From Candidatus Methylomirabilis tolerans (GTDB lineage: Bacteria; Methylomirabilota; Methylomirabilia; Methylomirabilales; Methylomirabilaceae), in the NCBI GenBank assembly GCA_019912425.1, contig JAIOIU010000102.1, forward strand, positions 37,655-101,654: a stretch of DNA of 64,000 nt, given 5' to 3'. This document shows, piece by piece, positions 45,532-64,000 of the stretch. Numbering within the stretch: the first letter of the stretch is position 1; every line of letters starts with the position of its first letter. Both the position numbers and the translations under genes were made by a program. A model generated the notes under the pieces. The model searched no databases, was not told the DNA's origin, and saw only the letters and a program-made list of their open reading frames with translations.

Positions 45532-45553
45532 GGTCAGCTCTCAGCCTTCGGCC
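45532..45553. repeat. TCAGC repeat family, short copy 5
   Basis: ggTCAGCtcTCAGCcttcggcc spans the gap between the mfd start and the upstream gene stop, and encodes the last residues (..KTAEG) of that gene. Confidence 0.45.
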
Positions 45554-46047
45554 GTTTTCGGAGGTGCCATCTCCATGATACGACGTATGATGCTGCTCGT
45601 GGAAGAGCCCTCCACTAACGGAATCGTGACGACTCGCCCACCACGCCTCTCGACCATCTCTCGACCGACGACCTCTTCCTTCGCCCAGTCGGCGCCCTTA
45701 ACCAACACATCCGGCTCAAGCGCGTCGATGGTGCAGCTTGGGTCTCGTTCCTCGAAGATGACGACGTAGTCAACCGAGGCCAGAGCCGCGAGCAACTCTG
45801 CCCGCTCATCCTGTGAGAGCACAGGCCGAGATCGGCCCTTGAGAAGCTGAACCGACACATCACTGTTCAGGCCAACGATCAACAGGTCGCCCAGCGCCCT
45901 CGCTTGCTGTAGCAAGCGGGTATGTCCTCGATGGAGGAGATCGAAACAACCATTGGTAAATACTACCCGCTCTCCCAGCGCCCGGCGCTGTTGGACGATG
46001 GTAGCCAGTTCGCAGAGCGATCTGATCTTGCCGGTGCCTACCGTCAT
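45541..46047 (-). CDS. D-glycero-beta-D-manno-heptose 1-phosphate adenylyltransferase (RfaE/HldE domain II type cytidylyltransferase-fold)
   Basis: ATG 46047 inside ORF 45541..46221, after ggaagg. VVFTNGCFDLLHRGHTRLL HxGH motif. VKGADW...GGRV...STSSII. Confidence 0.8.
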   Translation of the reverse strand: MTVGTGKIRSLCELATIVQQRRALGERVVFTNGCFDLLHRGHTRLLQQARALGDLLIVGLNSDVSVQLLKGRSRPVLSQDERAELLAALASVDYVVIFEERDPSCTIDALEPDVLVKGADWAKEEVVGREMVERRGGRVVTIPLVEGSSTSSIIRRIMEMAPPKTAEG

Positions 46048-46304
46048 TCCGCCTTCCCGGCCTTCCCTGGTACAAGGGAGAGCGATCCGCGCAGAGTGGC
46101 CTGTTCGATCAGTCGCCTCCCCTTTGCAGCATACGGAGCGGAGGTCATCAGCCGGATCTCTCCAAGCGGGCCGAAGGTAATCCCATGAAATCCGCCGACT
46201 CGCATAGAGCGGAGCCAACACGGAACACCATAACGTTGCAGATGCAACCGAAGGAGTTCCGCCTGCATCTCATCGTACGTGGCATAAATCATCTGTTCAT
46301 GCAT
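46044..46304 (-). CDS. small DUF2007-like protein, start uncertain
   Basis: ORF 46044..46415. Chosen start is ATG 46304 (MHEQMIYATYDEMQAELLRLHLQRYGVPCWL). The stop overlaps the downstream ATG. Confidence 0.4.
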   Translation of the reverse strand: MHEQMIYATYDEMQAELLRLHLQRYGVPCWLRSMRVGGFHGITFGPLGEIRLMTSAPYAAKGRRLIEQATLRGSLSLVPGKAGKAE

Positions 46305-47836: not shown

Positions 47837-49099
47837 TCACACGTCGCTCGCCGAAGATGAGAGTGGATCGGTAAACAGCCGGACGGCAAGCGAAGAGTCG
47901 CGACCGTTTCCTGTTCCCTCGGCCAGCCAGGAGCGCAATGGGCCGTAGACGAGTCGCGTATAGAAGGCGAGACCCAGACGGCTCAGGAGGAGCACTGTCG
48001 AGACCGCCGTCCAGACGGTCACCGCCACTAAGCCCCAATCCGGCCGGCCAAGCGCCAAACTGCCGGTCAGCAGGAGCAGATTGGGATTGCGCCGGGCCAT
48101 CACCAGCCTGAAGTAGGAATCAAAGGGTCGCCAGCAGAAGATACTGTACCGGCCGAGCCAATATTCAAACGTGCCCTCAACAAGGCGCCCGACAATATAG
48201 CCGATAAAGATCACCCACATCGCGAGATCCAGCGTGAGCGACGGTATGCCTGGATAGAACGACTCCAACCCGCGACCCCACAATAGGTACCAAAATGGTG
48301 GATGTATCAAATCCATGATGTGGTCGAAAAAGTGACCGAATCGGGTTGACGTCACCGTGACCCGAGCGAGCTTTCCGTCTACCGTATCCAGGAAGGTCAT
48401 GCACCATGCGGCAAGAAGTCCCCACCCATACAGACCGTTCGCAAAAAGGGCGCCGGCTGCGCAAACCAGCAGTACGCTGATCGACGTGACATGATTCGGC
48501 CGTAAACCGAGGGTCACACACAGGCGCGTGGCCCATCGAGCCGGGACAGGCCAAAACCATTTTGTCACCAGGTCGGTCACGCCTTTATAGGAGTTGGAAA
48601 ATAATCGCTCCTCCAACGCCCGTTTTGTCTCGATCCTGATCGATGCCACAAACGGCGGTGCCGATTTCAGCAACGACTTATGAAACGAGGATACGCGGTC
48701 CTCAAGTCGTTCTACCCGGACGGATGGAAGGGTATTCACGCTCCTCTCTCCGGAAAGAAGAGCGCAGGCCTCTCTAACCAAATTAGCGGCTACGTGAGCC
48801 GCAACTACCCGTCGAGACGGCCCTTCCGGTACCTCAAGGATGATATTCAACGAGGCAGCCAGATCATGGAGGACCCGGCCATCGAAGAGGTAATCCCCGC
48901 GAACGATAAGCACGGAGTCACTTGGTTTCACTAAGGAAAGATCATCCGCAATAGCCGTAACCCCTGCCTGTCTCAGCACGCGTCGGTAGCGCTCGCGAGA
49001 CGATAGCCTCCACAGCGTAACCGGGGCTTCTCCAAGTATATGGGCGTAAACAGTCATTATTCTCAGTCGGCGCGCTTCCAGAAAGTCGGGCGGTGCCAC
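47837..49099 (-). CDS. CDP-alcohol phosphatidyltransferase-family membrane enzyme with a degenerate N-terminal nucleotidyltransferase-like domain
   Basis: 420 aa. The exact family motif D-x2-D-G-x2-A-R-x8-G-x3-D-x3-D is present in LDTVDGKLARVTVTSTRFGHFFDHIMD. Several TM segments. The ~150-aa soluble N-terminus lacks a clear GxGxR loop. Confidence 0.8.
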   Translation of the reverse strand: MAPPDFLEARRLRIMTVYAHILGEAPVTLWRLSSRERYRRVLRQAGVTAIADDLSLVKPSDSVLIVRGDYLFDGRVLHDLAASLNIILEVPEGPSRRVVAAHVAANLVREACALLSGERSVNTLPSVRVERLEDRVSSFHKSLLKSAPPFVASIRIETKRALEERLFSNSYKGVTDLVTKWFWPVPARWATRLCVTLGLRPNHVTSISVLLVCAAGALFANGLYGWGLLAAWCMTFLDTVDGKLARVTVTSTRFGHFFDHIMDLIHPPFWYLLWGRGLESFYPGIPSLTLDLAMWVIFIGYIVGRLVEGTFEYWLGRYSIFCWRPFDSYFRLVMARRNPNLLLLTGSLALGRPDWGLVAVTVWTAVSTVLLLSRLGLAFYTRLVYGPLRSWLAEGTGNGRDSSLAVRLFTDPLSSSASDV

Positions 49100-49199: not shown

Positions 49200-50972
49200 T
49201 TACCCGGGATTACCCTTGTGCGTGATTGGAACACAACTCGGATCATAGTCATTCATGACCAAGGAAACCTCACCGTGTCGAATGCGGTAGACCCTGTCGG
49301 CGGACTCCACCATGACAGGTTGATGCGAAATGGCCAGAATCGTCAGCCGATCCAGAAGACCGCGTAACGTACGGCATATCTCAGCCGCATTTTCCGGATC
49401 GAGCGCGCTGGTCACTTCATCCAGGATCAACAGTTTGGGCCGATGCACCAGCGCCCTGGCAATCGCAATGCGTTGTCGCTGGCCTCCTGACAACATCGAA
49501 CCGCGTTCCCCAACCGAACTATAGATCCCGGATGGTCGTGCCACAACAAACTCCCAGGCGCCTGCAGCGCGCAATGCGGCTTCAGCATCAGCCTCGCTCA
49601 GATCCGGATCGCCAAGCGTCACATTCTGCAGCACTGTGTCATGGAACAGGAAGGTTTCTTGCGGCACATATCCGATCATCCTCCGCCACTGCCTCAGATC
49701 AACACTGTCCAATGACAGGTCGTCGATCCGGACATGACCTTGCTGTGGGCGCAGCAGACCCGTAAACAGATCCGCTATCGTTGTTTTCCCTGCCCCAGAT
49801 GGTCCCATAATAGCAGTAAACGACCCTACTGGAACGACCAGTGACGCATTCCACAGTACCCAGTGTTTTCCATATCCAAAGTTGACTTTATCAAGGCAAA
49901 GGGCCTTCTCCAGGTGAGGGGCCAGGCCTCCTGGCTCTGTTTCACGATCGCGGTTCGCGCTGTCAATGGCCGCTTGCAACGACCAGAAGGCACTTTCCAG
50001 GGTTCGCATTTTCTGGTATTGCCGCTGCATCTTAGCTAGACAGGTCAGCAATCGAGCAAGAAGGAACACCATAACCATCACGATATTGAACGGCATCTGC
50101 CACCGGCTAAGGGCCACATATAACCCGACAGCGATAAGGACGGCTAACAGAATCTCCTGGGAGGAGCTGAGCAGCTCGGTGCTGAGTACTTCACGCTGAA
50201 ACGCCAGGTTTAATCGCTTGGCGTTGGACTTGAGGGGAGGGCCGATCAACTCTTCACGCGCCATTGCCTTGAGGGGTTTGATGGATTGAAGGCTATCAGT
50301 CAGGCCGGCGAGAAGGGATTTTAATAAATGGGTTTGGCGGCTTCCAGCTCGATGCGCCATGCGGATGAAACGGTTGAGTCCATAGAAGATCACGATTCCG
50401 GGAACCAGGATTCCCAGGGTTGTCTTCCCCGCAACAACGAAGGCCACACATGCATACACAATCGCCTCGATAAACAGGGTCGTACTCTTGGCGCCCTCAA
50501 GATACCCCATTGAGGCTCGCATCGCTTCAGTGCCTACGGCATTAGCGAAGCTTCCGACAGGTTGGCGTACGTAATACTCCCACCGAGCGGCCAGCAGAGC
50601 TTGGAGCAGCGAGAGTCGCAGTTCAGTGGCAACGTGTGTAACCGTATAGCCGACCTGGGTTTTGGCCAATAGAAGAAATACCCCTTTAGCGACCACACAG
50701 AGGACAATCACGACCAACAATGTACCGACTGTCGGCCTGAGTCCGACGACTGAAAGGGCTTGCGTCAGGATACGCTGCGCGCCGGATGGGATCACACCGG
50801 TTCCAAAGGTCTTTTCACCGGTCGCCATGCTCAGCATCGGAAGCAGAAAGAGGAGGCCGACCCCCTCCGCGATGCTGGCGAACAGCAGGCAGATCAGCGT
50901 AAGCGCGCTCCGTCGCGGATACATCCGAATGATGGTGCTTAAAAATCGCATAGCGCCACCCGACGACTTCAA
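49200..50972 (-). CDS. ABC exporter, fused permease-ATPase (MsbA/lipid-flippase type architecture)
   Basis: 590 aa. Six-TM N-terminal half. GPSGAGKTT, LSGGQRQRIAIARAL, LILDEVTSALD. Confidence 0.85.
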   Translation of the reverse strand: MKSSGGAMRFLSTIIRMYPRRSALTLICLLFASIAEGVGLLFLLPMLSMATGEKTFGTGVIPSGAQRILTQALSVVGLRPTVGTLLVVIVLCVVAKGVFLLLAKTQVGYTVTHVATELRLSLLQALLAARWEYYVRQPVGSFANAVGTEAMRASMGYLEGAKSTTLFIEAIVYACVAFVVAGKTTLGILVPGIVIFYGLNRFIRMAHRAGSRQTHLLKSLLAGLTDSLQSIKPLKAMAREELIGPPLKSNAKRLNLAFQREVLSTELLSSSQEILLAVLIAVGLYVALSRWQMPFNIVMVMVFLLARLLTCLAKMQRQYQKMRTLESAFWSLQAAIDSANRDRETEPGGLAPHLEKALCLDKVNFGYGKHWVLWNASLVVPVGSFTAIMGPSGAGKTTIADLFTGLLRPQQGHVRIDDLSLDSVDLRQWRRMIGYVPQETFLFHDTVLQNVTLGDPDLSEADAEAALRAAGAWEFVVARPSGIYSSVGERGSMLSGGQRQRIAIARALVHRPKLLILDEVTSALDPENAAEICRTLRGLLDRLTILAISHQPVMVESADRVYRIRHGEVSLVMNDYDPSCVPITHKGNPG

Positions 50973-51174: not shown

Positions 51175-52533
51175 TTATGCGAGCCGGACCTCGAAGATGT
51201 CCTCGTGTCGGCGCCTTACTTCTACCGGGCGCAAAGCCCCGGTGATCCTCCGCAACCGCTCCGCTCGCTCCTGAAGGGCCGAGACTTCCAGGCGCGGGAA
51301 ACGCTGCCGATTGTACTCCACGCTATGGCGAGGGCTGCCGGAGCGCTGTTTCCGACGCCGTTTGATGCTTCGTACTTCGGCCTTGATTATGCCGGAGAGG
51401 CGTAGCGGGATACGGGTAAGACCCGCATAGGGGGAGCGGCGTGGGAGGAGCTTGATCAACCGAGCCGAGGCCAGCCCGTTGTCGAACCCATAGATGAAGC
51501 GGTCGACAAGACGGCGGCGGGCGCCGCCCGGATCGGGGTCGAAATCAGGGTTGCGGATGGCCGCGATGACCTCATCGGCAGTACGACACCGCGGACCCAG
51601 TTCATTGGGGAATCGGAGTTCATGGCGTGGGTCCTCGATGGGAGTATAGGGTATGATGCGCGTGCCGAGGAGAAAACCCTCTACCGCGGTTGTACACCCG
51701 CACTGGATCAGGCAATTGGACGCTATGAGCCAGGGCACCACGTTCCCCTCATGGCGAACGGAGACGTTTGGATACGTCGCGAGGAGCGTTCGCCAGAAGT
51801 CGTGGTTCTCGGCGGGGTGGGGCCTCAGCACGATCCGCCGGTCGGGGAACGCCCGCGCGACCGCCGGGATGAGGGCCTGGAAGGCCTCGAACACCACCCG
51901 CTTGTAGTGGAAGAGCCCGCGGGCGAACTCGTCCGGCATCCCGAGAGACCAATGTCCACGCACCCATTCTCCGTTCTTCATATATAGGAGGTTCAGGGTC
52001 TCGTGATAGCCGTTGACGTGGTTGAAGTTCGTATTGAAGAGGATAAAGTCGCCGAATTCCCGACGCAGTTCGTCCACCCGATCCTGAAAGAGTGTGCGCA
52101 TCTCCGGTCGCAGAATATCCGCTCGCGGGTTACCGAGGACTCGGACTGCCTCCCGTCGGCAAGCGGGATGGCCATAGAAGAGGTCGCGGTTATCCTCGCC
52201 CCACGCCACAAGCAGGTCGATCAGATCGAAGGCGTCCTTCGCAATGCGACGAGCGTAATAGATATCCGGCGCGTAGTGAGCGACCGCCTCCTCATCCCAT
52301 GCGATGATGTAGTGGCCAATCCGCCGTATGATGTGCAGCATCTTCATGCTGGGCTCCGTCAGCGACTTGGCGATGTAGAGACTCGGGGGGAAACGGCCAA
52401 TCCGTTCGTGGATGCGCCATTTGGCGCCGATGATGCTCGTCCAGCCCTCTTGAGCGGCGAGAACAGCTACAAGCAGCTTGGCATCCAGCTCGCGAACCTG
52501 GTTCTCGACCGGAATGATTAAGAGCGGCTTCAT
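51175..52533 (-). CDS. uncharacterised surface-carbohydrate biosynthesis protein, candidate glycosyltransferase
   Basis: 452 aa, soluble. MKPLLIIPVENQVRELDAKLL... Two Rossmann-like halves by hydrophobic pattern, basic C-terminal tail. From memory it resembles families found beside NeuB genes, but no catalytic motif could be verified by eye. Confidence 0.4.
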   Translation of the reverse strand: MKPLLIIPVENQVRELDAKLLVAVLAAQEGWTSIIGAKWRIHERIGRFPPSLYIAKSLTEPSMKMLHIIRRIGHYIIAWDEEAVAHYAPDIYYARRIAKDAFDLIDLLVAWGEDNRDLFYGHPACRREAVRVLGNPRADILRPEMRTLFQDRVDELRREFGDFILFNTNFNHVNGYHETLNLLYMKNGEWVRGHWSLGMPDEFARGLFHYKRVVFEAFQALIPAVARAFPDRRIVLRPHPAENHDFWRTLLATYPNVSVRHEGNVVPWLIASNCLIQCGCTTAVEGFLLGTRIIPYTPIEDPRHELRFPNELGPRCRTADEVIAAIRNPDFDPDPGGARRRLVDRFIYGFDNGLASARLIKLLPRRSPYAGLTRIPLRLSGIIKAEVRSIKRRRKQRSGSPRHSVEYNRQRFPRLEVSALQERAERLRRITGALRPVEVRRRHEDIFEVRLA

Positions 52534-52837: not shown

Positions 52838-54784
52838 TTAGGGCCTATTGCAGCCTGAGGCGGAATCACGACTCTTTAATATCCTTGCGGCAAGGGAAGC
52901 GCCATCGAGTCCATGATATTTCAGCACCTCTGACGGTGTTCCCCATGCCGGGTATCCTTCAATGCCAAACTTTTGGAAATGCCGATTATCCATCACGTGA
53001 GAAGCCGTGAGTGTGTTGAGAAGTGTATCGCCCAATCCGCCCACAGGCGCATGATCTTCCAGTACAAACAGAGCACGACATGTATCGATAACCTCTTGTA
53101 ACCAGTCCGTGTGCACCCGGTTGATCCAGGGCATGTTGACCACTTTCAGGTGAAAGCCGCTCTCGCGTAAGATTTCGGCAGCCAATAATGCCTCATGAAG
53201 CATGATGGGTCCGTATGCGAACAGGACGGCATCGCGTCCATCCACCAGTGTGACGCCACGCCCAGGCTCTAGTCGGTAGCCTTGGGGCAATTCGATGATG
53301 CGTGGCGAGGGGCCGATGACAAGCCTCAATACGCAGCTTTCCTCTGCTTCTTTCACGCAATATTCAACCGCCATCCGTGTCTCCGCGGCATTGCAGGGCT
53401 GGATCACGACAAGGTTCGGTAGCGCCCCAACAAGGGAGATATCCCGGATGCTCTGGTGCGATTGGCCGGGTCCGGCAGGGATCAGGCCAGCGTAGTGGCA
53501 GACGTAGATAATCTTGGTCTGCTCGCACGCATTATTATAGATCTGCTCGTTGGCTCGCGAAGCCAAGAAGGCTGCAAAGGTGTTCACCACGGGCAGCAGT
53601 CCCTGGAGCGCCAGTCCGCCGGCCATCGACACCATATCCTGCTCGGCAATCCCATTCTCGATAAAGCGTTCGGGGTAGGTGAGCTCAAAGGCGCGAATGC
53701 GACAGTCGGCGGCCAGATCGGCATCCAACACCACGAGTTCCTCCCGTTCGGCGGCGATGTCCACGAGCGCCCGGCCAAAGGCGTCGGCGACGTATTCGCT
53801 AGACACGGCCTTAGCGCCCTTGTCTTCCTGGGTAAGCTCTTCCATTGCGAGCGGCAACAGCCCCAGTCTCTCCATGCGCGCCTGAATGCGCGTCACGATT
53901 TCCTGGTAGGCATCGGTAAAGGATCGATCATCCGGGGCGCCGGAATGCCAACGATAGAGCCCACCGCCGGTCTTCAGGGCCGTTGGGTGCTCCATAAACG
54001 ACACGCCGCGGCCCTTAATGGTATCGGCAATGAGGACCTTGGGCGTGTCGGTAATCGCCTTGAACTCAGCAAACACCTTCTCCAGTTGTCGAAAATCATG
54101 CCCATCGCAGCGAGCCACGTGCCATCCAAAAGTCCGCAACTTGGTTTCCAGATCGCCTAGATCGCAGATGTCACGGACGGGCTTATCCGACTGTACCTTG
54201 TTGTGATCGATGATCAGACTGATATTCGCGATTCGCTGATGAGCCGCCGCCTGTAACGCTTCGTAGACCTGACCCTCCTGCATTTCGCCGTCGCCGTTCA
54301 TCACGAACACGCGCCCCTGATGACATCTCAGGCGCTTCGCAAAGGCCATGCCCTTCGCCTTGGAGATGCCCATCCCCAGTGAGCCGGAGTTGGCCTCGAT
54401 ACCGGATGTGCTGACATCGGGATGTCCGCACGTTCCCTCCAGCCTTCTGAGTGTGGTGAACTGCTCCTTCGGAAGAATGCCCAAAGAAAACAGGATAGCG
54501 TACTGACCGGGCACATCATGGCCTTTCGAGGAGAAGTAGATATCACGATCGGGATGCTCGACGCCGACAGTGACGGTATTCATTTCCGCATAGTACAACC
54601 ACACAACAATGTCCATCGCGCTGAAGCTTGAGCCCAGGTGTCCGGAGCCGGCACGCTTGACGGAGGCCAGCGTGTTGGCCCGGCACATATCAGCGATCAG
54701 CGCAAGCCTGTCATATTGATCAATTGCGGCCGCACGGACGCGTTGAAACTCTTCCAACGGGATAAGCGTGACCATATGAAGCAT
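52838..54784 (-). CDS. transketolase-family ThDP enzyme (N- and C-terminal halves fused in one polypeptide)
   Basis: 648 aa. GSGHLGSSFS, NGDGEMQEGQVYEA ThDP-binding motif, a pyrimidine-binding half with FENGIAEQDM, and a C-terminal domain. Confidence 0.8.
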   Translation of the reverse strand: MLHMVTLIPLEEFQRVRAAAIDQYDRLALIADMCRANTLASVKRAGSGHLGSSFSAMDIVVWLYYAEMNTVTVGVEHPDRDIYFSSKGHDVPGQYAILFSLGILPKEQFTTLRRLEGTCGHPDVSTSGIEANSGSLGMGISKAKGMAFAKRLRCHQGRVFVMNGDGEMQEGQVYEALQAAAHQRIANISLIIDHNKVQSDKPVRDICDLGDLETKLRTFGWHVARCDGHDFRQLEKVFAEFKAITDTPKVLIADTIKGRGVSFMEHPTALKTGGGLYRWHSGAPDDRSFTDAYQEIVTRIQARMERLGLLPLAMEELTQEDKGAKAVSSEYVADAFGRALVDIAAEREELVVLDADLAADCRIRAFELTYPERFIENGIAEQDMVSMAGGLALQGLLPVVNTFAAFLASRANEQIYNNACEQTKIIYVCHYAGLIPAGPGQSHQSIRDISLVGALPNLVVIQPCNAAETRMAVEYCVKEAEESCVLRLVIGPSPRIIELPQGYRLEPGRGVTLVDGRDAVLFAYGPIMLHEALLAAEILRESGFHLKVVNMPWINRVHTDWLQEVIDTCRALFVLEDHAPVGGLGDTLLNTLTASHVMDNRHFQKFGIEGYPAWGTPSEVLKYHGLDGASLAARILKSRDSASGCNRP

Positions 54785-54805
54785 CAGAAGGACATTGGCA
54801 TAAAA

Positions 54806-55588
54806 TTATGCGAATATCCCATCATTCCTGAATTTCTCCATCAGTTTTTCAACAATAAAAAAATCAATAGGAGAATCGATATCAATAGCCCGCTCCTGGG
54901 GGATGATATGATATCGCACAAAATCTCCAGTAAGAGAAGCGGTCTCGTAAATGACATTCGTACGACAGGCTATGACATTCGAACGAAAGTAGGCTTTTTC
55001 ATAATGTTGCCTCGCAATCGGTGTGACCTCTCTACCGCTTTCCGTGAAGTATGTAACCAGGTGCTGACCGCCCTTTCCATCGTTAATCAGTTTCAGGGCT
55101 TTTAGTGGATGCTGGCGTGCTTCCGCAATCACCACAGCCGATTGTGCCAACGGATCTTTTAAGAGTTCTTCAATACAGGAGTCAATATCTTCCGGCATCT
55201 GCAGAGGAACCGTTGTCATCATACGTACGACGATATCCGGTTTATATTGTTCATACTCCATCAACCATTCCACCATATGCTTGACGTATTCCCATTCCGG
55301 TGAATGGTCGGCCGCAAGTTCCTTTGGGCGAAGATATGGGACGTCCGCGCCGTATCGTCGTGCAATTGCCGCGTACTCTTCCGAATCAGTGGATACTATG
55401 ACGCGGTTAACATACCTCGACGCCTTAGCCGTTTCAATGATCCAGGCTATCAATGGTTTTTCCATGAGTAAGCGGATGTTTTTATGGGGGACTCCTTTGG
55501 AGCCGGAACGGGCCCCAATAATGCCCAGAATCTTCAGATCCGGATATCTGTCTACACGCATGGGCGCAATCGCGTACCCGATGGCCAT
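54806..55588 (-). CDS. CMP-sugar-acid cytidylyltransferase (acylneuraminate/KDO cytidylyltransferase family, CTP_transf_3)
   Basis: 260 aa. GIIGARSGSKGVPHKNIRLL P-loop-like motif, VIVSTDSEEYAAIARRYGA, RPKELAADHSP. Confidence 0.8.
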   Translation of the reverse strand: MAIGYAIAPMRVDRYPDLKILGIIGARSGSKGVPHKNIRLLMEKPLIAWIIETAKASRYVNRVIVSTDSEEYAAIARRYGADVPYLRPKELAADHSPEWEYVKHMVEWLMEYEQYKPDIVVRMMTTVPLQMPEDIDSCIEELLKDPLAQSAVVIAEARQHPLKALKLINDGKGGQHLVTYFTESGREVTPIARQHYEKAYFRSNVIACRTNVIYETASLTGDFVRYHIIPQERAIDIDSPIDFFIVEKLMEKFRNDGIFA

Positions 55589-55613
55589 GCACCGGATAAC
55601 CCTTCTACACGTA

Positions 55614-56543
55614 TCATCTAATCCTTTCCATGATCATTGTGTAGACTTCTTGAATCGCAGGACACGGAACATGGTGCAACTTTGCCAGTCTCAAAATTGC
55701 GCCTGGAATAGCATCGACTTCCGAGGGGATACGTTTTCCAATATCGCGCTGAAGCGAGGTGGTGAGCGTTGGTGGTAGTGCATCAATCTGATGCATCACC
55801 GCCTCGGGATCGATCTTCACTCCCTCCTTGCGTGCCACTGCTACCCCCTCTCCGACACAGCCTTCTAACTTACGGCGCCATACCGGGTCTTGACGGATGA
55901 AACCAATCGTCTCTTGGCTGGCGGCAGTTGTCGAAGCGATCGCGTTGAGGCGAGCCAATTTTCGCCAAATGACTTCGGCTTCTCGATTACATACAAGAGT
56001 CTCAACCCCCATTCGCGACAAGAATTCACCGATGCGACACAAGTCCTTTTTGGGAATATCGTGATTTGAGGCTAACTCGATATGAGGGGCGTGACGCGAG
56101 GAATGAATTATATGATTCCAGCCGACCTTGACGGCCTCTATCGCACCGATCATACCGACTGCCACCCGGTTTCCCACACGTTCGCGAATGGCAGAAACAT
56201 GCTCGAACCCATTAAGAAGCGGGATCACCACGGAATTCGAAACGAGCGCCCTTGAAACCAACCCGAGCGCATCGTTCAAGAAAGGAGCTTTTACAGCAAT
56301 AAACAAGAGATCTGGCTCATAATTAAGCTGGTGGACGGCTTGAGGGTATGCCAACACCTCTCCAAATCGAGCGCTCTCCAGGCGTATGCCATGCTCATTA
56401 ATGACGCGTACCTGTTCTGGCTTGCCGATACAGGTTACCAACACACCCTGTTTCCAGAATATCGAGGCCAGAAACCCACCTATAGCGCCGAGGCCGAGTA
56501 TTGCCACGGATGGCTCTGCTTTATTTTGGCCAGGGGTGTTCAC
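55614..56543 (-). CDS. ketopantoate-reductase-family (ApbA/PanE) 2-oxoacid/oxosugar reductase
   Basis: 309 aa. VAILGLGAIGGFLA Rossmann motif. Family-typical ..PLLNG.., with ST.QD-like TTSLQRD near the C-terminus. Confidence 0.7.
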   Translation of the reverse strand: MNTPGQNKAEPSVAILGLGAIGGFLASIFWKQGVLVTCIGKPEQVRVINEHGIRLESARFGEVLAYPQAVHQLNYEPDLLFIAVKAPFLNDALGLVSRALVSNSVVIPLLNGFEHVSAIRERVGNRVAVGMIGAIEAVKVGWNHIIHSSRHAPHIELASNHDIPKKDLCRIGEFLSRMGVETLVCNREAEVIWRKLARLNAIASTTAASQETIGFIRQDPVWRRKLEGCVGEGVAVARKEGVKIDPEAVMHQIDALPPTLTTSLQRDIGKRIPSEVDAIPGAILRLAKLHHVPCPAIQEVYTMIMERIR

Positions 56544-57726
56544 GGATTACTTGTTCATTAACCTCAGTTCCCCATCCAGGCCCTGTCGGGACGTGGAGAT
56601 ATCCATTCTCAATGCGTGGAGGATTGGTAAAGAGATCCTCTCGCCACGGCACATCATCAACATCGATCTCCATGATCCTGAGGTTAGGGATCATCGCACA
56701 AAATTGGGCGCTGATGAAAGTCGACAAATACCCATTATAATTGTGTGGAGTGACATTCATCTCGTACAGTTCTGCCGCATCAGATATTTTCTTTGATTGC
56801 GCAAACCCGTTCCAGATGATATCAACGCTTGCAACGTCCATCGCGTGTTTCTCAAAGTACGGCCGGTACTGCCGCATCCCGTACAAATTCTCGCCACTGC
56901 ATACGGGAGTATTGATAGAATTTCTGATCTGTACAAGAGCCTCAGGGTCGTACGAATCTATCTCAAGCCACAGCAGGCCAAATTGCTCCAGCATCTTTCC
57001 GATCTTAATGTACCCTTCCGTCCTAAAATTGAAATTGAGGTCCAAGATAATATCGATTGTGTTACCTACTGCAGCGCGTAACACACCAACCCAGTCCTCA
57101 ACAGCCCGCAGCAACGGTCTATCTGCGTTCAACTCCGGCCCGCCCGAACTCTTGAGAAACCCGGGCATATAGACATACGGATCGTCGCCCACAATTCCGA
57201 TATTCGTTTTTATTGCCCTATAACCACTGGCAAGTATCTCTTGACCAAATCGCTTGACATCATCAAAAGACTTAATCTGTTCCCTGCAGACTATCCGCCA
57301 AGCGCGAATCCGCGTCGTTCCACAGTGCGACCAGTACAGTGGTATTTTTTCTCGTAACGGTCCCCCAAAAAGCTCATACACCGATAAGCCAAGCGCTTTT
57401 GCTTTTATATCAAGCAAAGCATTCTCAATGCCTCCAATGGCTTTCTGAACTATGCTTCCGGGACTTTGACGAGTCCTGGAATACATATCCCAATAGAGTT
57501 TCTCGGTGACACGGGGATCTTGACCTATCAGAAGCGGCGACAAATCTCTCACAACTCCCTCTAGGCCCCTAGGAGAACCGTGTGAATCAGTACATTCGCT
57601 CCATCCAATGATTCCCTGATCGGTCCTGACCTTAATAAACGTCCATGGTCTCCAGCCGGCGTCGCAATGTAGTGTTTCAACGCTGACAATCTTCATATCG
57701 TATCCCGCACACGACCACTCAATCAT
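56521..57726 (-). CDS. enolase-superfamily enzyme (mandelate racemase / sugar-acid dehydratase type)
   Basis: 401 aa. MKIVSVETLHCDAGWRPWTFIKVRTDQGIIGWSECT capping domain. ...IENALLDIKAKALG. Barrel with metal-ligand-like D/E positions (LDLNF.., WLEIDS..). The start may be ATG 57696. Confidence 0.75.
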   Translation of the reverse strand: MIEWSCAGYDMKIVSVETLHCDAGWRPWTFIKVRTDQGIIGWSECTDSHGSPRGLEGVVRDLSPLLIGQDPRVTEKLYWDMYSRTRQSPGSIVQKAIGGIENALLDIKAKALGLSVYELFGGPLREKIPLYWSHCGTTRIRAWRIVCREQIKSFDDVKRFGQEILASGYRAIKTNIGIVGDDPYVYMPGFLKSSGGPELNADRPLLRAVEDWVGVLRAAVGNTIDIILDLNFNFRTEGYIKIGKMLEQFGLLWLEIDSYDPEALVQIRNSINTPVCSGENLYGMRQYRPYFEKHAMDVASVDIIWNGFAQSKKISDAAELYEMNVTPHNYNGYLSTFISAQFCAMIPNLRIMEIDVDDVPWREDLFTNPPRIENGYLHVPTGPGWGTEVNEQVIREHPWPK

Positions 57727-57735
57727 CGACCCTTC

Positions 57736-59208
57736 CTACAGTTTGGTGGGGTCGGTGCTGATGTAGATATCTTTTAACTCTGAATAGACGTCCAACGCCT
57801 CTGTGCCGGGCTCGCGTGAGCCGTTTCCCGATTGCTTCAGACCGCCAAAAGGCATGTGGGGTTCGCTTCCATAGGTTCCGGCATTCACGATGGCCACCCC
57901 GGCCTGTACCTTTTGTGTGAACTGGATCGCTCGATGCAAGTTGCGGGTATGGATGCAGGCTGTCAGTCCATAGAGAGAATCGTTCGCGAGGGCCAGAGCC
58001 TCTGCGAAATCCTTGACGCGATACAGGCAGGCAATCGGACCAAACAACTCTGTTGATGAGATATCATCGTGTGCCCCCACATTCTCAATGATCGTGGGCG
58101 TCATGTAAAAGCCGTTGCGGTGTGGTAGATCGGTCAGCCTGTGCCCTCCGGCGAGAACGGCGGCGCCCTTCTGTCGCGCCCCTTCGATCGCATCGAGCAT
58201 ACGGGTGAGCTGCTTCTCGTTTATTACAGGACCAAGATCATCGTCATCGGTCGGTCCGACCTTGAGTTGCTTCGCGCCTGTTACGACCATGTCGCGAAAC
58301 CGGTCATAGACGGCGTCAAAGACGATGATCCGGCTCCCCGACGCGCAACGCTGTCCGGCATTGCTGAAGGCTGAAAGCAACGCCCACCTGGCCGCGTTCT
58401 CCAGATCGGCATCGTCGCACACGACGAACGGGTTCTTGCCGCCTAGTTCAAGTGATACCTTCGCCAAGCGCTCGCCCGCAACCCGCTGGATGGAGCGTCC
58501 GACCGCGGTCGAGCCGGTAAAACTGATCACCCCTACGTCAGGGTGTTCCACGAGCGGCGCGCCCGCTTCTTCTCCATACCCCTGGATGATATTGAGCAGA
58601 GCGGCAGGTAGACCCGCCTCCTGAGCGATGTGACCGACAATCCAGGCAGTCGCCGGCGTATCTTCTGCCGCTTTCAGTACAACGGCGTTACCGCAGATCA
58701 AGGCCGGAAAGATCTTCCAGGCTACATTGGCAATCGGAGTATTGGCAGGCACAATCAGACCGGCGATACCGATCGGCTGACGTATGGTCATGGCAGACCG
58801 ATCAGGAATCCCGCTGGTTGTCGTGCGACCATACAACCGCTGTCCCTCGCCGGCATAAAACAGCCCCAACGCAATCGCTCCACCAGTCTCGGCATACGCA
58901 TCTTTGTACGACTTGCCGGTCTCTAACGCGACGATTTGCGCAATCTCCCGCTGCCGCGCCTCCATTCCAAGGACGATTTTATGTAAGAGCATTCCACGCT
59001 GAACGGGCGGGGTATCCGCCCAGGAGGGTTGAGCCCGCTTGGCGGCTTTGACCGCCTGATGCACATCCTCAGCCAGTGACCGAGTTACGCGGCACGCCAC
59101 CCGACCATCGGCAGGATTCAGCTTGTCAAACCACTCACATGAGATGGCTGGACGCTGCCGTCCATCAATCCAGTTCGGGATCTCCGCTGGGAAGAGCCTT
59201 GTCCCCAT
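57736..59208 (-). CDS. NAD(P)-dependent aldehyde dehydrogenase
   Basis: 490 aa. FTGSTAVG, LELGGKNP, catalytic Cys region NAGQRCASGSRI, and the EEAFGP variant STELFGP. Confidence 0.88.
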   Translation of the reverse strand: MGTRLFPAEIPNWIDGRQRPAISCEWFDKLNPADGRVACRVTRSLAEDVHQAVKAAKRAQPSWADTPPVQRGMLLHKIVLGMEARQREIAQIVALETGKSYKDAYAETGGAIALGLFYAGEGQRLYGRTTTSGIPDRSAMTIRQPIGIAGLIVPANTPIANVAWKIFPALICGNAVVLKAAEDTPATAWIVGHIAQEAGLPAALLNIIQGYGEEAGAPLVEHPDVGVISFTGSTAVGRSIQRVAGERLAKVSLELGGKNPFVVCDDADLENAARWALLSAFSNAGQRCASGSRIIVFDAVYDRFRDMVVTGAKQLKVGPTDDDDLGPVINEKQLTRMLDAIEGARQKGAAVLAGGHRLTDLPHRNGFYMTPTIIENVGAHDDISSTELFGPIACLYRVKDFAEALALANDSLYGLTACIHTRNLHRAIQFTQKVQAGVAIVNAGTYGSEPHMPFGGLKQSGNGSREPGTEALDVYSELKDIYISTDPTKL

Positions 59209-59214
59209 TGTCGT

Positions 59215-60033
59215 TTACCAGGCCGTCCACCCGCCGTCAATAATGACGTTTGCTCCGGTCATATACGATGAGGCGTCAGAGACCAAAAAGGTGATGGCCC
59301 CGTTGTATTCATCCTCGTGCGCCATCCGCCCGAGCGGAACTCGCGCAGCATAGTTTGCGAGGAACTGTTCATTCTGGTTGTTAAACACCCCGCCGAGGGT
59401 AAGGGTATTGGCCCGTACGTTGTTGCCTGCCCAATATGTCGCAAGATAACGGGTCAGGTTGAGAAGCGCGGACTTGGAGGCAGAATAGGCCGCCGGCTTG
59501 ACAAACGGTGTTCCGCCTGCGCGGCGATATTCATAGATGCGCTGATCAGGGGCGACCATCCCATAGATGGAGCCGATGTTGATGATCGAGCCGCGGCCGG
59601 ATCCAGCCATCTGTCCTCCTACGACCTGGCAGCAGAGGAAGGCGCCTTTCACGCCGACCTCCATCACCTTGTCCCACGAGCTTTCCGGGTAGTGCTCAAA
59701 AGGTCCGTTTTCCTCTGCCGGCGCATTGGGTGGAGCATCAAGGGCCGCATTATTGATCAACGCATGGGGCACGCCCCACTTCGCATTGACCTGACTCAAA
59801 CCGGCCTCAATCGAGCGTCGTTGCGTGATATCCACTTGTACGAACATGAGGTTCTCGTCGTTGCGTCGCCCCGCAAACCGTTCGGTGACCCGTTGCTCGT
59901 CAACCTGGATATCGAAGATAGCGACCTTGGCTCCCCGATCCGCCAGCGCGAGGCTGAACCGGCGACCGAGCTGCCCAAGCCCGCCGGTGACAATGGCAAT
60001 CTTCTCCTGTACGCTAAAGAGGTCTTGAGCCAT
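59215..60033 (-). CDS. short-chain dehydrogenase/reductase
   Basis: 272 aa. VTGGLGQLG cofactor motif, NNAA, YSASKSAL catalytic Y-x3-K. Confidence 0.85.
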   Translation of the reverse strand: MAQDLFSVQEKIAIVTGGLGQLGRRFSLALADRGAKVAIFDIQVDEQRVTERFAGRRNDENLMFVQVDITQRRSIEAGLSQVNAKWGVPHALINNAALDAPPNAPAEENGPFEHYPESSWDKVMEVGVKGAFLCCQVVGGQMAGSGRGSIINIGSIYGMVAPDQRIYEYRRAGGTPFVKPAAYSASKSALLNLTRYLATYWAGNNVRANTLTLGGVFNNQNEQFLANYAARVPLGRMAHEDEYNGAITFLVSDASSYMTGANVIIDGGWTAW

Positions 60034-60041
60034 TCAAGCGG

Positions 60042-60569
60042 CTACTCCCGTTGCTGCGGCGCCAGAATACGCTCGAAGAGATCGCAGACCTCACGCACCG
60101 CTCCATGGCCGCCGCGCGCCTTCGTTTGATACAGGGCGTAGGGGAGCACATCCGGATGGGCGTCCTGGACGACAATGGGGAGCTTGACACACATCAGGCA
60201 TGGCATGTCATTGACGTCGTTACCGACGAACGCCGTTTGCGCCAGGGAGAGGCCCATCTCCTGGACGCGGGTTTCAAGCGCCGCGCGTTTATCTTTGCAT
60301 CCTTGAAGGCACTGAATGCCCAGCTTCCTGCCGCGAGCTGAGACAACCGGATTCGTCTCCGTCGAGACGATGAGCGTTGCAAGTCCAAGCCGTTCGAGCC
60401 GTTGCAGTCCCAGGCCGTCGCCACGAGAGCACCGTACCGCCTCGCGACCGTCTTCAAAGACGTACACCATGTTATCGGTGAACACCCCGTCGAAGTCAAA
60501 GACCACCAAGCGTATCTCACGGATGCGCTCCTCAAGGAAGCGGACCTTAGGCATTGTTGCGCTGTCCAT
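60042..60569 (-). CDS. HAD-superfamily KdsC-type phosphatase (ulosonate-phosphate phosphatase)
   Basis: 175 aa. LVVFDFDGVFTDN, ..GDGLG.., FVGNDVNDMP, typical of the KDO8P/KDN9P/Neu5Ac9P phosphatase family. Confidence 0.8.
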   Translation of the reverse strand: MDSATMPKVRFLEERIREIRLVVFDFDGVFTDNMVYVFEDGREAVRCSRGDGLGLQRLERLGLATLIVSTETNPVVSARGRKLGIQCLQGCKDKRAALETRVQEMGLSLAQTAFVGNDVNDMPCLMCVKLPIVVQDAHPDVLPYALYQTKARGGHGAVREVCDLFERILAPQQRE

Positions 60570-61630
60570 TACCCTTCAGCGCCTGTCAGGTCCTCGAACG
60601 AGATATTCTCGTCCGCATTCAGGCGGCGACGGAGCGCCTGTCCGATGACATGTTCGAGTTCGAAAGGCGGCACGCCGTCGCTCGGCGATTTGATGGCGAT
60701 ATCGTCCCGTGTCAAGACGTGGCCGGTCGGTAACTCATGGGCCGCGACAAGCTTCTTGCCCATCTTGAACAGCGGTTTGTCCTCGCCGGGAAGCGGCCGC
60801 TTTTTTCCGTCACCCAAGGCGGCGCGTACTCGATGTAGGTCCCGCACCAGCTTCTGTAGGCCGATCGGCTCCAGAGAGAAGGCGTGGTCTGTTCCCTTCC
60901 AGGCGCGATTCAGGGTGAAGTGCTTTTCGATGACCTGCGCGCCCAGGACATTCGCCATCAGGGCCATAGCGATCCCGTTTTGATGATCCGAGAGTCCGAT
61001 CACCACATCCGGGAATCGCTCGCGGTAGGTCATAATCACACGTAAGTTCATGTCTTGAGGCTCGACCGGGTAACTCGCCGTCGATTGCAGGAGACACAGT
61101 TGTGGGTTGATCGGCATAATCGTATCGTACGCGCGTTGTACATCCTCGATGGTGCCCCCACCAGTACTGACGATCATCGGCTTACCAATCCAGGCGACGT
61201 ATGTGAGGAACGGCGTATTCTTCAGATCCCCTGATGCAATCTTGAAGGCCGGCATATCGAGTTCTGCCAGAAAGTCGGCGCTCACGAAGTCGAAGGCCGT
61301 GGCAAACATCGTCACACGTAATTCGTTCGCATAGCGCTTCAGCTCACAATACTCCTCCCTCCCAAATTCCAACGCCTCGCGATGAGCGCCATACGTGGGA
61401 CCGAAGCTGTTCTCGTTGTTGTAGGGCATATCGTAGATTGCGCGTGTGTACAGCGAGCGATTATCACGTTTCTGTAGTTTGACGGCGTTCACGCCACACT
61501 GTTTGGCGACACGAAACATCTCCTTAGCCTGTTCCAGGCTACCCTGGTGATTGTGACCGATCTCAGCGATGACGTAGCAGTCGCTGTCGTCGTGAATATG
61601 ATCGGATCCGATAGTCAAATTCCGCGGCAT
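60569..61630 (-). CDS. NeuB-family sialic-acid-type (ulosonic acid) synthase with C-terminal SAF domain
   Basis: 353 aa. CYVIAEIGHNHQGSLEQAKEMFRVAKQCGVNAVKLQKR, ..SDHQNG.., EKHFTL, and a C-terminal SAF-like LTRDDIAIKSP. Confidence 0.88.
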   Translation of the reverse strand: MPRNLTIGSDHIHDDSDCYVIAEIGHNHQGSLEQAKEMFRVAKQCGVNAVKLQKRDNRSLYTRAIYDMPYNNENSFGPTYGAHREALEFGREEYCELKRYANELRVTMFATAFDFVSADFLAELDMPAFKIASGDLKNTPFLTYVAWIGKPMIVSTGGGTIEDVQRAYDTIMPINPQLCLLQSTASYPVEPQDMNLRVIMTYRERFPDVVIGLSDHQNGIAMALMANVLGAQVIEKHFTLNRAWKGTDHAFSLEPIGLQKLVRDLHRVRAALGDGKKRPLPGEDKPLFKMGKKLVAAHELPTGHVLTRDDIAIKSPSDGVPPFELEHVIGQALRRRLNADENISFEDLTGAEG

Positions 61631-61750: not shown

Positions 61751-62938
61751 TTACACGGAGGACGCTGTCTTGATGGACGCGAAGGCCTCACAGATACGGT
61801 TGATCTGGTCAGGGGTATGCGCCGCACTGACACTGCATCGGAGCAGGCTCCCCCCATCTGGGGCGGCCGGCGGCAAGATCATATTTACGTAAACGTCTTG
61901 GCGGAGAAGACCGTTCCAGAAGGCAATCGTATCTTCCGCCTGTTCGAACCGTACTGCTATGATCGGACTGGGTTCCGGGCTAAGCCTGAATCCTAACCCC
62001 TTTAACCAATCGAACAATCGTTGCGCATTCGTCCAGAGCTTCATACGCAGCTCAGGTTCTGTTTGGAGTCTTCGCAGAGCAACCCTCGTGGAAGCAATCA
62101 CTGAGGGACATGGGGATGCGGTGAAAATATACGGACGGCTCGCATACCTGATCAGTTCCATCACGGGATGATCCGAGACGCAGAATCCACCGGTAGCGCC
62201 AAGACTCTTGCTGAAGGTCCCGACGATAAAATCGACGCTACCCTCGACGCCGGCCTCTTCGGAGCGCCCGCGGCCCCGTTCCCCCAAGACTCCGAGCGAG
62301 TGAGCTTCGTCTACGAGCAGATAGGCGCCATGCTCCTGTTTCAAGGCTGCTATCTCCACCAGCGCTGCGCGATCCCCCAACATACTATAAATGCCTTCCG
62401 CGATGATCAGCGTATTAGGACAACGCTTCCCCAGACGTGTTAGACGCTTATGGAGGTCGGCCGTATCGTTGTGGCGAAACCGAATAATCTCAGCGCCGCT
62501 CATCCGGCAGCCATCATAGATACTCGCATGACAGTCGGCATCGATCAGGATCACGTCGCCATGGCCCGCGAGCGCCGAAATCACTCCAAGGTTAGCCAGA
62601 TAGCCGGTCGAAAAGACATCACACCATCGACGTCCATAAAATTCGGCCAGCTCTTGCTCTAACGCAAGGTGTCCACTAAAATTACCATTCGCCATTCTGG
62701 AACCGGTGGTACCGGTTCCTTGCTCCCGTACAGCGTTGACCGCGGCATCAATACACTCAGGGTCGAACGTTAATCCCAGGTAGTTATTCGTCCCTGCCAG
62801 GATCACCTGCCGGCCGTTCACGATAGCTTCAGTCGGCGACACAAGGCGCTCAATCGTCACACGAAAGGGATCCTCGCTTACCCGCGCTAACGACGTCCGG
62901 GCGTCAGCCAACTGTCTAAATTTCTTGAGAAGGGCCAT
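61751..62938 (-). CDS. alpha-oxoamine synthase, serine-palmitoyltransferase-like
   Basis: 395 aa. GTNNYLGLTFDP...GTGTTGSRMANG, STGYLANLG, RFRHND, PLP-lysine GTFSKSLG, RPYIFTAS, YVNMILPPAAPDGGSLLRCSVSAAHT. From memory this tracks bacterial SPT more closely than BioF or Kbl. Confidence 0.75.
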   Translation of the reverse strand: MALLKKFRQLADARTSLARVSEDPFRVTIERLVSPTEAIVNGRQVILAGTNNYLGLTFDPECIDAAVNAVREQGTGTTGSRMANGNFSGHLALEQELAEFYGRRWCDVFSTGYLANLGVISALAGHGDVILIDADCHASIYDGCRMSGAEIIRFRHNDTADLHKRLTRLGKRCPNTLIIAEGIYSMLGDRAALVEIAALKQEHGAYLLVDEAHSLGVLGERGRGRSEEAGVEGSVDFIVGTFSKSLGATGGFCVSDHPVMELIRYASRPYIFTASPCPSVIASTRVALRRLQTEPELRMKLWTNAQRLFDWLKGLGFRLSPEPSPIIAVRFEQAEDTIAFWNGLLRQDVYVNMILPPAAPDGGSLLRCSVSAAHTPDQINRICEAFASIKTASSV

Positions 62939-63186
62939 TACCTCGGCTCCAGGAGTTGCTCAATCTGCCTGGCGAAATCTCCAATAGTCCGTACGTCCGA
63001 GACGATGTTTAAAGGAATAGAAATGTCGAATCGTTCCTCTACCTCGAGCAATAGTTCCATGACCTTCAGCGAATCGAGATCGAGATCGGCGACGAGCTCT
63101 GTCTCTTCCGAAAGGGTCTGTCCGTTCTGCCCATGCGGTCGCAGGATTTCGTAGAGTTGCGGCAGTATTGCCTCGTAGTGAGCCAT
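62938..63186 (-). CDS. acyl carrier protein
   Basis: 82 aa. The phosphopantetheine site DLDLDSLKVMELLLEVEERF. The TAATG junction overlaps the SPT-like start. Confidence 0.85.
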   Translation of the reverse strand: MAHYEAILPQLYEILRPHGQNGQTLSEETELVADLDLDSLKVMELLLEVEERFDISIPLNIVSDVRTIGDFARQIEQLLEPR

Positions 63187-63236
63187 CTGTGAGTCAGCCT
63201 GACGTATATTGGGTTAGGCGGCCGCCCTTATCCTGG

Positions 63237-64000
63237 TCAGGGAAGGCCAAAAGTAAGTCGCAGACCTTCTTCCAAACGCACCTTTGGCGTCCAGCCGGAA
63301 ACCCGGGAGAACGGGATGCTGTCGCAGGTCCAGTCCGGATGTCTGAACTCCCGCACCTTCCCAGGGGTGAACATCGGCGCATATCCTATCATAGATGCGA
63401 CCATCTTGTTGAGCCACGCAATGATATTCATGATCAGCTCAGGCACCCGGAAAGAGAATACCCGTTTTCCCCGAAGTTGCTGGACGGTCTTGATGACCTC
63501 ATGCCAAGTATATCCCTTGGGATACCCATCATCCAACTCGAACGCGTGCTTCTCTCGGACATTGCCCTTCAGCCATTGTATCACGGCCTCCGCAAGGTCT
63601 TCTACGTAGAGTAAGGAGAATCTGGCGTCTTGTCTGCCTAGTATGGGAGCGATCCCATACAGCATCAGGCGAAGCAGGGGACGTATTGCGCGGTCCTCCG
63701 GGCCATAGACCACCGGGGGGCGAAGGGCGGTCCAGGGAAGATCGGCTACTGCGGCTACGGCAAGCTCCCCCAACCGCTTACTGGCTGCGTAGGGCGATAA
63801 TTCCGGCTCTCGAGCCGCCAACGATGATATTAAGAGAAACCGGGGTACGGGACTTCGGCCTGCGGTAATATGCGCCAACCGTGAGACCGCCTCAACATTT
63901 GTTCGATAAAAGTCGGCCTCGGTAATCCCCCGTACTACCCCTGCGCAGTGGATTACGGCATCCACTTCGTCCACCAGGCTTTCGAGACAATTGCGATCTT
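63237..64000 (-). CDS. NAD-dependent epimerase/dehydratase-family reductase (extended SDR), N-terminus beyond window
   Basis: Frame is open to base 64000 (..LESLVDEVDAVIHCAG). Catalytic YAASK. A long C-terminal substrate domain. Confidence 0.8.
   Translation of the reverse strand, partial: DRNCLESLVDEVDAVIHCAGVVRGITEADFYRTNVEAVSRLAHITAGRSPVPRFLLISSLAAREPELSPYAASKRLGELAVAAVADLPWTALRPPVVYGPEDRAIRPLLRLMLYGIAPILGRQDARFSLLYVEDLAEAVIQWLKGNVREKHAFELDDGYPKGYTWHEVIKTVQQLRGKRVFSFRVPELIMNIIAWLNKMVASMIGYAPMFTPGKVREFRHPDWTCDSIPFSRVSGWTPKVRLEEGLRLTFGLP

Follow-up and report, generated by a model that had tools for sequence, protein, structure and literature searches.

Organization of the ceramide locus

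The stretch of DNA analysed here (the window; 64,000 nt, all coordinates being positions within it) ends in three genes arranged head-to-tail on the minus strand from position 61751 to the window end: spt, acpR and cerR, for a serine palmitoyltransferase (SPT), a dedicated acyl carrier protein (ACP) and an NDUFA9-like reductase (Table 1). Judged from sequence, they very probably make up the 3' end of an operon, aasR-cerR-acpR-spt, that encodes the core of bacterial (dihydro)ceramide synthesis. The open reading frames (ORFs) of the cluster are all intact and the catalytic residues are in place. The synthase contains the four motifs NNYLG, GTFSKSLG, RPYIFTAS and YVNMILPPAAPDGGSLLRCSVSAAHT, and its start overlaps the stop of the ACP gene in a TAATG; the ORFs, the motifs and the translational coupling described in a first-pass annotation of this DNA were thus all recovered on the minus strand where it had placed them.

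The upstream part of the operon was identified in the Logan contig L083, which agrees with the final 2141 nt of the window at every base and runs on for 3567 nt. An exact look-up of the ACP retrieved this contig; that of the SPT found nothing, the Logan contigs ending inside spt. Because this contig is identical to the window end, the operon can be extended upstream to AasR. The contig supplies the missing N-terminus of the reductase, giving a full-length CerR of 308 aa, and directly upstream of cerR, with an overlap of 22 nt, it contains the gene for a fatty acyl-AMP ligase of 608 aa (AasR; NF006624, 762 bits, cutoff 600; 44% identity to AasR of E. coli BL21). The acyl-ACP synthetase that the first-pass annotation had proposed to look for in the rest of the genome is the immediate neighbour of cerR, and the order in the combined window and contig is aasR-cerR-acpR-spt.

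Table 1. Features of the window discussed in the text, with position, strand and basis of assignment.
Feature	Position	Strand	Description	Basis
spt	61751..62938	-	Serine palmitoyltransferase; pyridoxal phosphate (PLP)-dependent alpha-oxoamine synthase, class I/II aminotransferase fold, 395 aa	NF047599; alignments to Sphingomonas paucimobilis SPT and BL21 Spt
acpR	62938..63186	-	Dedicated acyl carrier protein, 82 aa, phosphopantetheine site Ser39 (DSL)	Pfam PP-binding
cerR	63237..64000	-	NDUFA9-like extended short-chain dehydrogenase/reductase (SDR; ceramide reductase); C-terminal 253 of 308 codons, N-terminus past the window end	Pfam Epimerase
Sugar-acid cassette	52838..61630	-	Eight genes directly downstream of spt	Family matches, none at equivalog cutoff
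TIGR04396 protein	51175..52533	-	"Surface carbohydrate biosynthesis protein", 452 aa, GT-B fold, candidate transferase or 2-epimerase	TIGR04396, 326.6 bits
ABC exporter	49200..50972	-	MsbA/PglK-like, candidate lipid flippase (association inferred)	Pfam ABC_membrane and ABC_tran
CDP-alcohol phosphatidyltransferase	47837-49099	-	420 aa, downstream of the ABC exporter	Weak matches to phosphatidylinositol-phosphate synthase models
HldE domain II-like protein	45541-46221	-	Heptose-1-phosphate adenylyltransferase-like, downstream of the ABC exporter	TIGR02199, 193.6 bits (cutoff 181.5)
Mfd	42170-45526		Housekeeping gene used for host assignment	

Identity of the synthase

The synthase is a serine palmitoyltransferase by sequence. 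It scored 620.8 bits against the NCBIfam equivalog NF047599 (serine palmitoyltransferase, cutoff 500), for which the experimentally tested Spt of E. coli BL21 scored 599.2 bits. Its nearest solved structures are the SPTs of Sphingomonas (8e-128) and Sphingobacterium (5e-81). The pairwise alignment to S. paucimobilis SPT (SpSPT, PDB 2jg2) suggested in the first-pass annotation gave 52.7% identity over 385 residues (E=8e-128), with the PLP lysine and the His/Asp/His/Arg set kept: H137, D210, H213, K244 and R367 align to H159, D231, H234, K265 and R390 of SpSPT. Since the synthase falls below the cutoff of the alphaproteobacterial SPT model (472.6 bits against 670) and exceeds that of the "BetaP" model, it can be placed in the E. 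coli B/Nitrosomonas-type branch of SPTs.

The acyl carrier protein and the reductase

The ACP matches Pfam PP-binding (PF00550, 7e-10) and is 43% identical to E. coli BL21 AcpR over 67 aa (E=1.5e-18), Ser39 of its DSL site being aligned with the LES of the E. coli protein, and helix II aligning too. It scores under the cutoffs of housekeeping AcpP models, e.g. TIGR00517 (42.9 against 70.45). It is accordingly assigned to AcpR, the specialised sphingolipid ACP; acylation by AasR and use by Spt are predicted by analogy.

The in-window part of the reductase matches Pfam Epimerase (1.7e-14). Full-length CerR has GATGFIG at residue 9 (on L083) and YAASK at residue 125, only the latter motif lying in the window, and is 41% identical over 303 residues, that is, over the full length, to ECD_02852/epi of E. 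coli BL21. Its solved relatives are one bacterial NAD-dependent epimerase/dehydratase chain, ranked first, followed by NDUFA9 subunits of complex I; the CerR of Caulobacter has likewise been reported as NDUFA9-related (PMC11087976). The best match in NCBIfam, which holds no curated CerR model, was HpnA with 81 bits, far under the cutoff. The place of its gene between aasR and acpR, together with its sequence, marks the protein as the CerR ortholog, and it is predicted to reduce 3-oxo-ceramide or 3-oxo-sphinganine in the periplasm. The first-pass reading of the three genes as SPT, dedicated ACP and NDUFA9-like reductase is upheld by the SPT cutoff that was passed, by the solved relatives of the synthase (SPTs) and of the reductase (NDUFA9 subunits) and by the BL21 cluster, matched full-length and in order.

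Conservation of the array, host and horizontal transfer

Related loci were collected by an SPT search of bacterial contigs, with one genome per species, yielding 80 loci; the GTDB representatives searched do not include the source genome, an exact 40-mer search for the window end having no hit in them. In 75 of the 80 the gene immediately upstream of spt encodes an ACP, the reductase precedes the ACP in about 70, and an acyl-AMP ligase precedes the reductase in most of those with enough flank. The array recurs in at least 70 of the 80 loci, from several phyla, and close homologs of the whole cluster are common in metagenome-assembled genomes (MAGs) of Nitrospirota, Desulfobacterota, Acidobacteriota and Methylomirabilota. 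Many of the related loci contain a divergent GNAT of 380-400 aa, alongside MobA-like nucleoside triphosphate (NTP) transferases and second copies of lptF/lptG. The GNAT of one relative (locus L003) shares 49% identity with E. coli YghO, the ortholog of the bacterial ceramide synthase bCerS.

The closest SPT in the genome set belongs to Ca. Methylomirabilis sp. bin48 (90% identity). Mfd of the window is 81-82% identical to that of Methylomirabilota MAGs and at most 46% identical to homologs beyond close relatives; on sequence grounds the host is Methylomirabilis-like, that is, a methane-oxidising member of NC10. The window SPT is 76-78% identical to SPTs from MAGs of Nitrospirota, Acidobacteriota and Binatia. 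Since these values across phyla stand against at most 46% for Mfd, the ceramide cluster was probably transferred between phyla. Separately, a MAG labelled "Patescibacteria group bacterium" (DATMXF01; contigs L002, L095 and L179) contains an spt cluster, a bCerS and an Mfd 77-98% identical to those of Methylomirabilota; this bin is probably mislabelled or contaminated.

Representation in metagenomes and metatranscriptomes

Bioreactor metagenomes contain the window at 100% of the sampled words, and in three metatranscriptomes of the same study contigs at 100% identity cover 52-64 kb of the window. The metatranscriptome contigs span the cerR-acpR, acpR-spt and spt-neuB junctions, neuB being the first gene of the sugar-acid cassette. 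The gap between spt and neuB was scanned for terminators and no terminator-like site was found.

A putative ceramide synthase

The contigs of three bioreactor metagenome runs containing the window (X1, X3 and X5) were compared with the bCerS gene of L003. Run X1 contains a contig of 7474 nt with about 84% nucleotide identity to this gene and a depth of 222, the window contigs of that run having depths of 193-207. An equivalent contig of 6059 nt was identified in run X3 and two such contigs in run X5. Four candidate proteins (P0003, P0007, P0008 and P0011) were rejected as the bCerS of the source strain, all of them coming from other Methylomirabilota strains or samples; their loci contain the full array together with the GNAT, NTP transferases and lptF/lptG.

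Proposed pathway

Gene identity, gene order, catalytic residues, conservation of the array and transcription are established in this analysis, and a pathway can be proposed by homology to the tested systems, in which the substrates, the order of the steps and the final lipid are predicted. AasR would adenylate a free long-chain fatty acid and load it on the phosphopantetheine arm of the dedicated ACP at Ser39. Spt would form 3-oxo-sphinganine from L-serine and acyl-AcpR in a condensation that proceeds through a Schiff base at Lys244 and releases CO2. A YghO/bCerS-type N-acyltransferase, putatively encoded elsewhere in the genome, would attach the second acyl chain, and CerR, as an NDUFA9-like SDR, would reduce the 3-keto group to yield ceramide. 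The MsbA-like ABC exporter, conserved beside spt, is the probable flippase that would move the lipid toward the outer membrane.

Alternative explanations

Several observations weigh against the ceramide reading. Arg378 of SpSPT is replaced by Leu355 in the synthase, and Asn100 by Thr78; since the active E. coli BL21 Spt shares the ILPPAAP loop with the window protein, the leucine can be regarded as a trait of the clade, not as defining for the branch. The sequence of the synthase does not discriminate between serine and alanine, glycine or cysteate as its amino-acid substrate. Neither the 64-kb window nor the 3.5 kb past its end contains a bCerS/YghO homolog; the gene divergent from aasR encodes a TagF-like CDP-glycerol glycerophosphotransferase (L083, 1-1155), and the evidence for a bCerS elsewhere in the genome is indirect, consisting of the match of about 84% in nucleotides and the similar depth (depth was compared in X1 only). 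DNA carry-over cannot be excluded for the RNA contigs. In the library searched, no paper paired "Methylomirabil…" with "serine palmitoyltransferase", and "Methylomirabilis" and "sphingolipid" were paired only incidentally.

Three other readings were weighed against the ceramide operon. In public annotations the NC10 orthologs appear as BioF, the 8-amino-7-oxononanoate synthase of the biotin pathway, or as KBL (glycine C-acetyltransferase): orthologs at 77-94% identity are named "8-amino-7-oxononanoate synthase" by JGI and, for Ca. M. lanthanidiphila, by NCBI. It also speaks for BioF that the E. coli enzyme takes an acyl-ACP substrate. This identity is extremely improbable for the window protein, which passes the SPT model and stays under the cutoffs of the sister families: bioF (TIGR00858, 335.5 against 426.45), the two KBL models (307.4 against 460 and 273 against 493), ALAS (227.7 against 338.55) and CqsA (199.9 against 428). 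Solved KBL (2e-63) and BioF (2e-55 or worse) structures are some 65-70 orders of magnitude weaker in E-value than the SPTs. The synthase gene sits with aasR, cerR and acpR; biotin genes were found neither around it in the window and L083 nor in any of the loci examined. The first-pass annotation had raised BioF proteins of biotin operons as possible best homologs; the names proved to be automatic and the loci to be aasR-cerR-acpR-spt arrays.

The array could instead make a long-chain amino-ketone or amino-alcohol other than a canonical serine-derived ceramide, for example a 1-deoxy (alanine-derived) base, a glycine-derived base, a cysteate-derived base of the sulfonolipid type or a CAI-1-like signal. 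Similar alpha-oxoamine synthases do use other amino acids, cysteate acyltransferase and CqsA being among the weaker matches; 1-deoxy-ceramides have been detected in anoxic waters rich in relatives of the cluster (PMC11334938), and bCerS is not adjacent in this genome. Such a product is nevertheless unlikely, as the synthase is 53-57% identical to tested serine-using SPTs, compared with E-values of 2.5e-56 for cysteate acyltransferase and 2e-30 for CqsA, shares its curated equivalog with the Spt of E. coli BL21, and has in its close relatives the same array accompanied by bCerS homologs. A third possibility is that the cluster is a horizontally acquired remnant and that this strain makes no ceramide, either because the ceramide synthase is missing or because the pathway ends at the free long-chain base. 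The similarity across phyla, so far above that of Mfd, fits lateral transfer, the place of bCerS beside aasR is taken by the TagF-like gene, and head-group genes near the cluster vary among Methylomirabilota strains. Against a remnant stand the intact ORFs with their catalytic residues kept, the representation of the operon in three metatranscriptomes and, in the same metagenome, a contig of the same depth bearing a bCerS-like gene, and this explanation is considered very unlikely. The ceramide operon is retained as the preferred reading.

Surroundings of the ceramide operon

The TagF/TarF-like gene at 1-1155 of L083 matches PF04464 (7.6e-28), and relatives have the bCerS GNAT at that place. 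In another Methylomirabilota strain (L166) a Glyphos_transf gene, an NTP transferase and a methyltransferase were identified downstream of spt. The set of head-group genes flanking the ceramide core seems to differ from strain to strain.

Downstream of spt, the cassette comprises a NeuB-like synthase, a KdsC-like phosphatase, an SDR and an aldehyde dehydrogenase, followed by an enolase-superfamily dehydratase, a PanE-like reductase, a PseF-like cytidylyltransferase and a transketolase-like protein. Scores lie below the equivalog cutoffs: NeuB 283 (400), PseI 223 (340) and KdsC 117 (208). Counts around spt were made on the 47 related loci with at least 8 kb of downstream flank. In about 20 of them, from NC10 and Desulfobacterota, spt has the cassette no more than 10 kb downstream and in the same orientation, despite rearrangements. 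A search anchored on NeuB gave 72 loci from many phyla, including an archaeon, of which 70 lack an spt within 10 kb and just two, both from NC10, have one nearby. For this reason the cassette was rejected as primarily a head-group pathway specific to sphingolipids and is read as a general sugar-acid pathway: a co-transcribed neighbour of spt, independent of it and apparently uncharacterised, for a CMP-sugar acid. It recurs at 50-80% identity (loci L257-L327) in Actinomycetota (Gaiellales), Acidobacteriota, Chloroflexota, Desulfovibrionaceae and a Methanoregulaceae archaeon MAG, and looks like a widespread, uncharacterised CMP-ulosonic-acid pathway. Between 54000 and 58000, a segment coinciding with the cytidylyltransferase, PanE-like and enolase-superfamily genes, the G+C content is 0.50-0.52 against about 0.58-0.60 around it. 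These genes are missing from the cassette of the nearest relatives (L001 and L003) and are closest to those of a groundwater "Deltaproteobacteria" MAG (L263; cytidylyltransferase 81%, enolase 74%); the segment is probably a recent module swap.

A homolog of the exporter lies directly after spt in 37 of the 47 spt-anchored loci, which makes the MsbA-like protein a good candidate for the flippase; in the window the cassette sits between the two genes. The TIGR04396 protein scored far above its cutoff of 125 and has no Pfam domain. Its AlphaFold model (pLDDT 91) has a GT-B fold, for which Foldseek returned GT-B glycosyltransferases (HepE, LpxB and TagF) and UDP-GlcNAc 2-epimerases with TM-scores of about 0.5. 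The fold is generic, and on this model the protein is a candidate for either activity. It was identified in 13 of the 47 spt-anchored loci and in 3 of the 72 NeuB-anchored ones. Homologs of the CDP-alcohol phosphatidyltransferase are found within 10 kb of spt in 7 of the 47.

The ceramide operon, the CMP-ulosonic-acid cassette, the TIGR04396 GT-B protein and the MsbA-like exporter of NC10 and many Desulfobacterota might form one functional unit. If so, the product would be a sphingolipid with a sialic-acid-like sugar acid, a bacterial analogue of gangliosides. The adjacency in about 20 of the 47 loci from two phyla, the co-transcription with spt and the enrichment of the TIGR04396 protein at spt-linked loci favour this view; the occurrence of the same cassette in 70 other loci without spt within 10 kb weighs against it. 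On balance a single unit is unlikely, and the adjacency may reflect only an envelope-glycolipid island.

Significance for NC10 bacteria

The pathway and its gene order have already been published (PMC9386255, PMC11324152, PMC11087976). The first-pass annotation regarded sphingolipid synthesis as known from only a few bacterial groups; this statement is outdated, as genomic surveys predict Spt in 38-40 phyla (PMC11334938). Two supplementary files of Ding et al. 2024 contain no mention of Methylomirabilota. The NC10 bacterium is thus a new host for a known pathway and not a new system, a host that was probably unreported before; with the biochemistry already known and Spt predicted in about 40 phyla, the novelty is modest.

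Public names of the NC10 SPT orthologs are "8-amino-7-oxononanoate synthase" or a generic aminotransferase, and such labels may over-call biotin metabolism and hide the sphingolipid capacity of NC10 genomes. Methylomirabilis carries out nitrite-dependent methane oxidation and is tracked in nature partly via lipid biomarkers. An intact and transcribed ceramide operon predicts sphingolipids in NC10, which would be an extra lipid class to look for in enrichments and sediments. The cross-phylum similarity of the cluster, far above that of a housekeeping gene, adds to the view that ceramide synthesis moves laterally among bacteria as a module.

Comparison with known ceramide systems

The ceramide core was originally described from Caulobacter crescentus and E. 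coli B, and the biochemistry of the reference systems is described in PMC9386255, PMC11324152 and PMC11087976. Three proteins of the E. coli BL21(DE3) cluster, Spt, AcpR and AasR, have been tested experimentally (PMC9386255): AasR loads the fatty acid onto the specialised AcpR, and the tested Spts of E. coli BL21(DE3) and Caulobacter prefer the acyl-AcpR thioester (Padilla-Gomez et al., PMC9386255). The BL21 region ECD_02850-02854 comprises yghO (divergent), a fatty acyl-AMP ligase, an epimerase-family protein, an ACP and spt. It presents the same aasR-cerR-acpR-spt order and the same 1-nt overlap of acpR and spt as the locus described here, with identities of 57% for Spt, 43% for AcpR, 41% for CerR (full length) and 44% for AasR, and both Spts fall under NF047599 with the ILPPAAP loop. 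Second copies of lptF/lptG are found near the cluster in E. coli and in the Methylomirabilota relatives. The two loci differ at their edges: yghO (bCerS) is divergent from aasR in E. coli, whereas the TagF-like glycerophosphotransferase takes that place here, and spt is followed by lptG/lptF in E. coli and by the sugar-acid cassette in the window.

In Sphingomonadaceae aasR is distant from the acpR-spt operon (PMC9386255), unlike the arrangement described here. The S. paucimobilis SPT shares the PLP lysine and the His/Asp/His/Arg390 set with the window enzyme and differs from it at Arg378 and Asn100. Caulobacter crescentus (CC_1162-CC_1165 and CC_1154, comprising spt, acpR, cerR, aasR and bcerS; PMC11324152, PMC11087976) follows the same five-protein logic, with an acyl-ACP synthetase, a dedicated ACP, Spt, an NDUFA9-like reductase and a GNAT-type ceramide synthase distant from spt. 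The window Spt differs from the Caulobacter system in scoring under the alphaproteobacterial SPT model, and the grouping of GNAT, NTP transferase and lptF/lptG in the relatives of the window locus recalls the Caulobacter region CC_1152-CC_1156 (PMC11324152).

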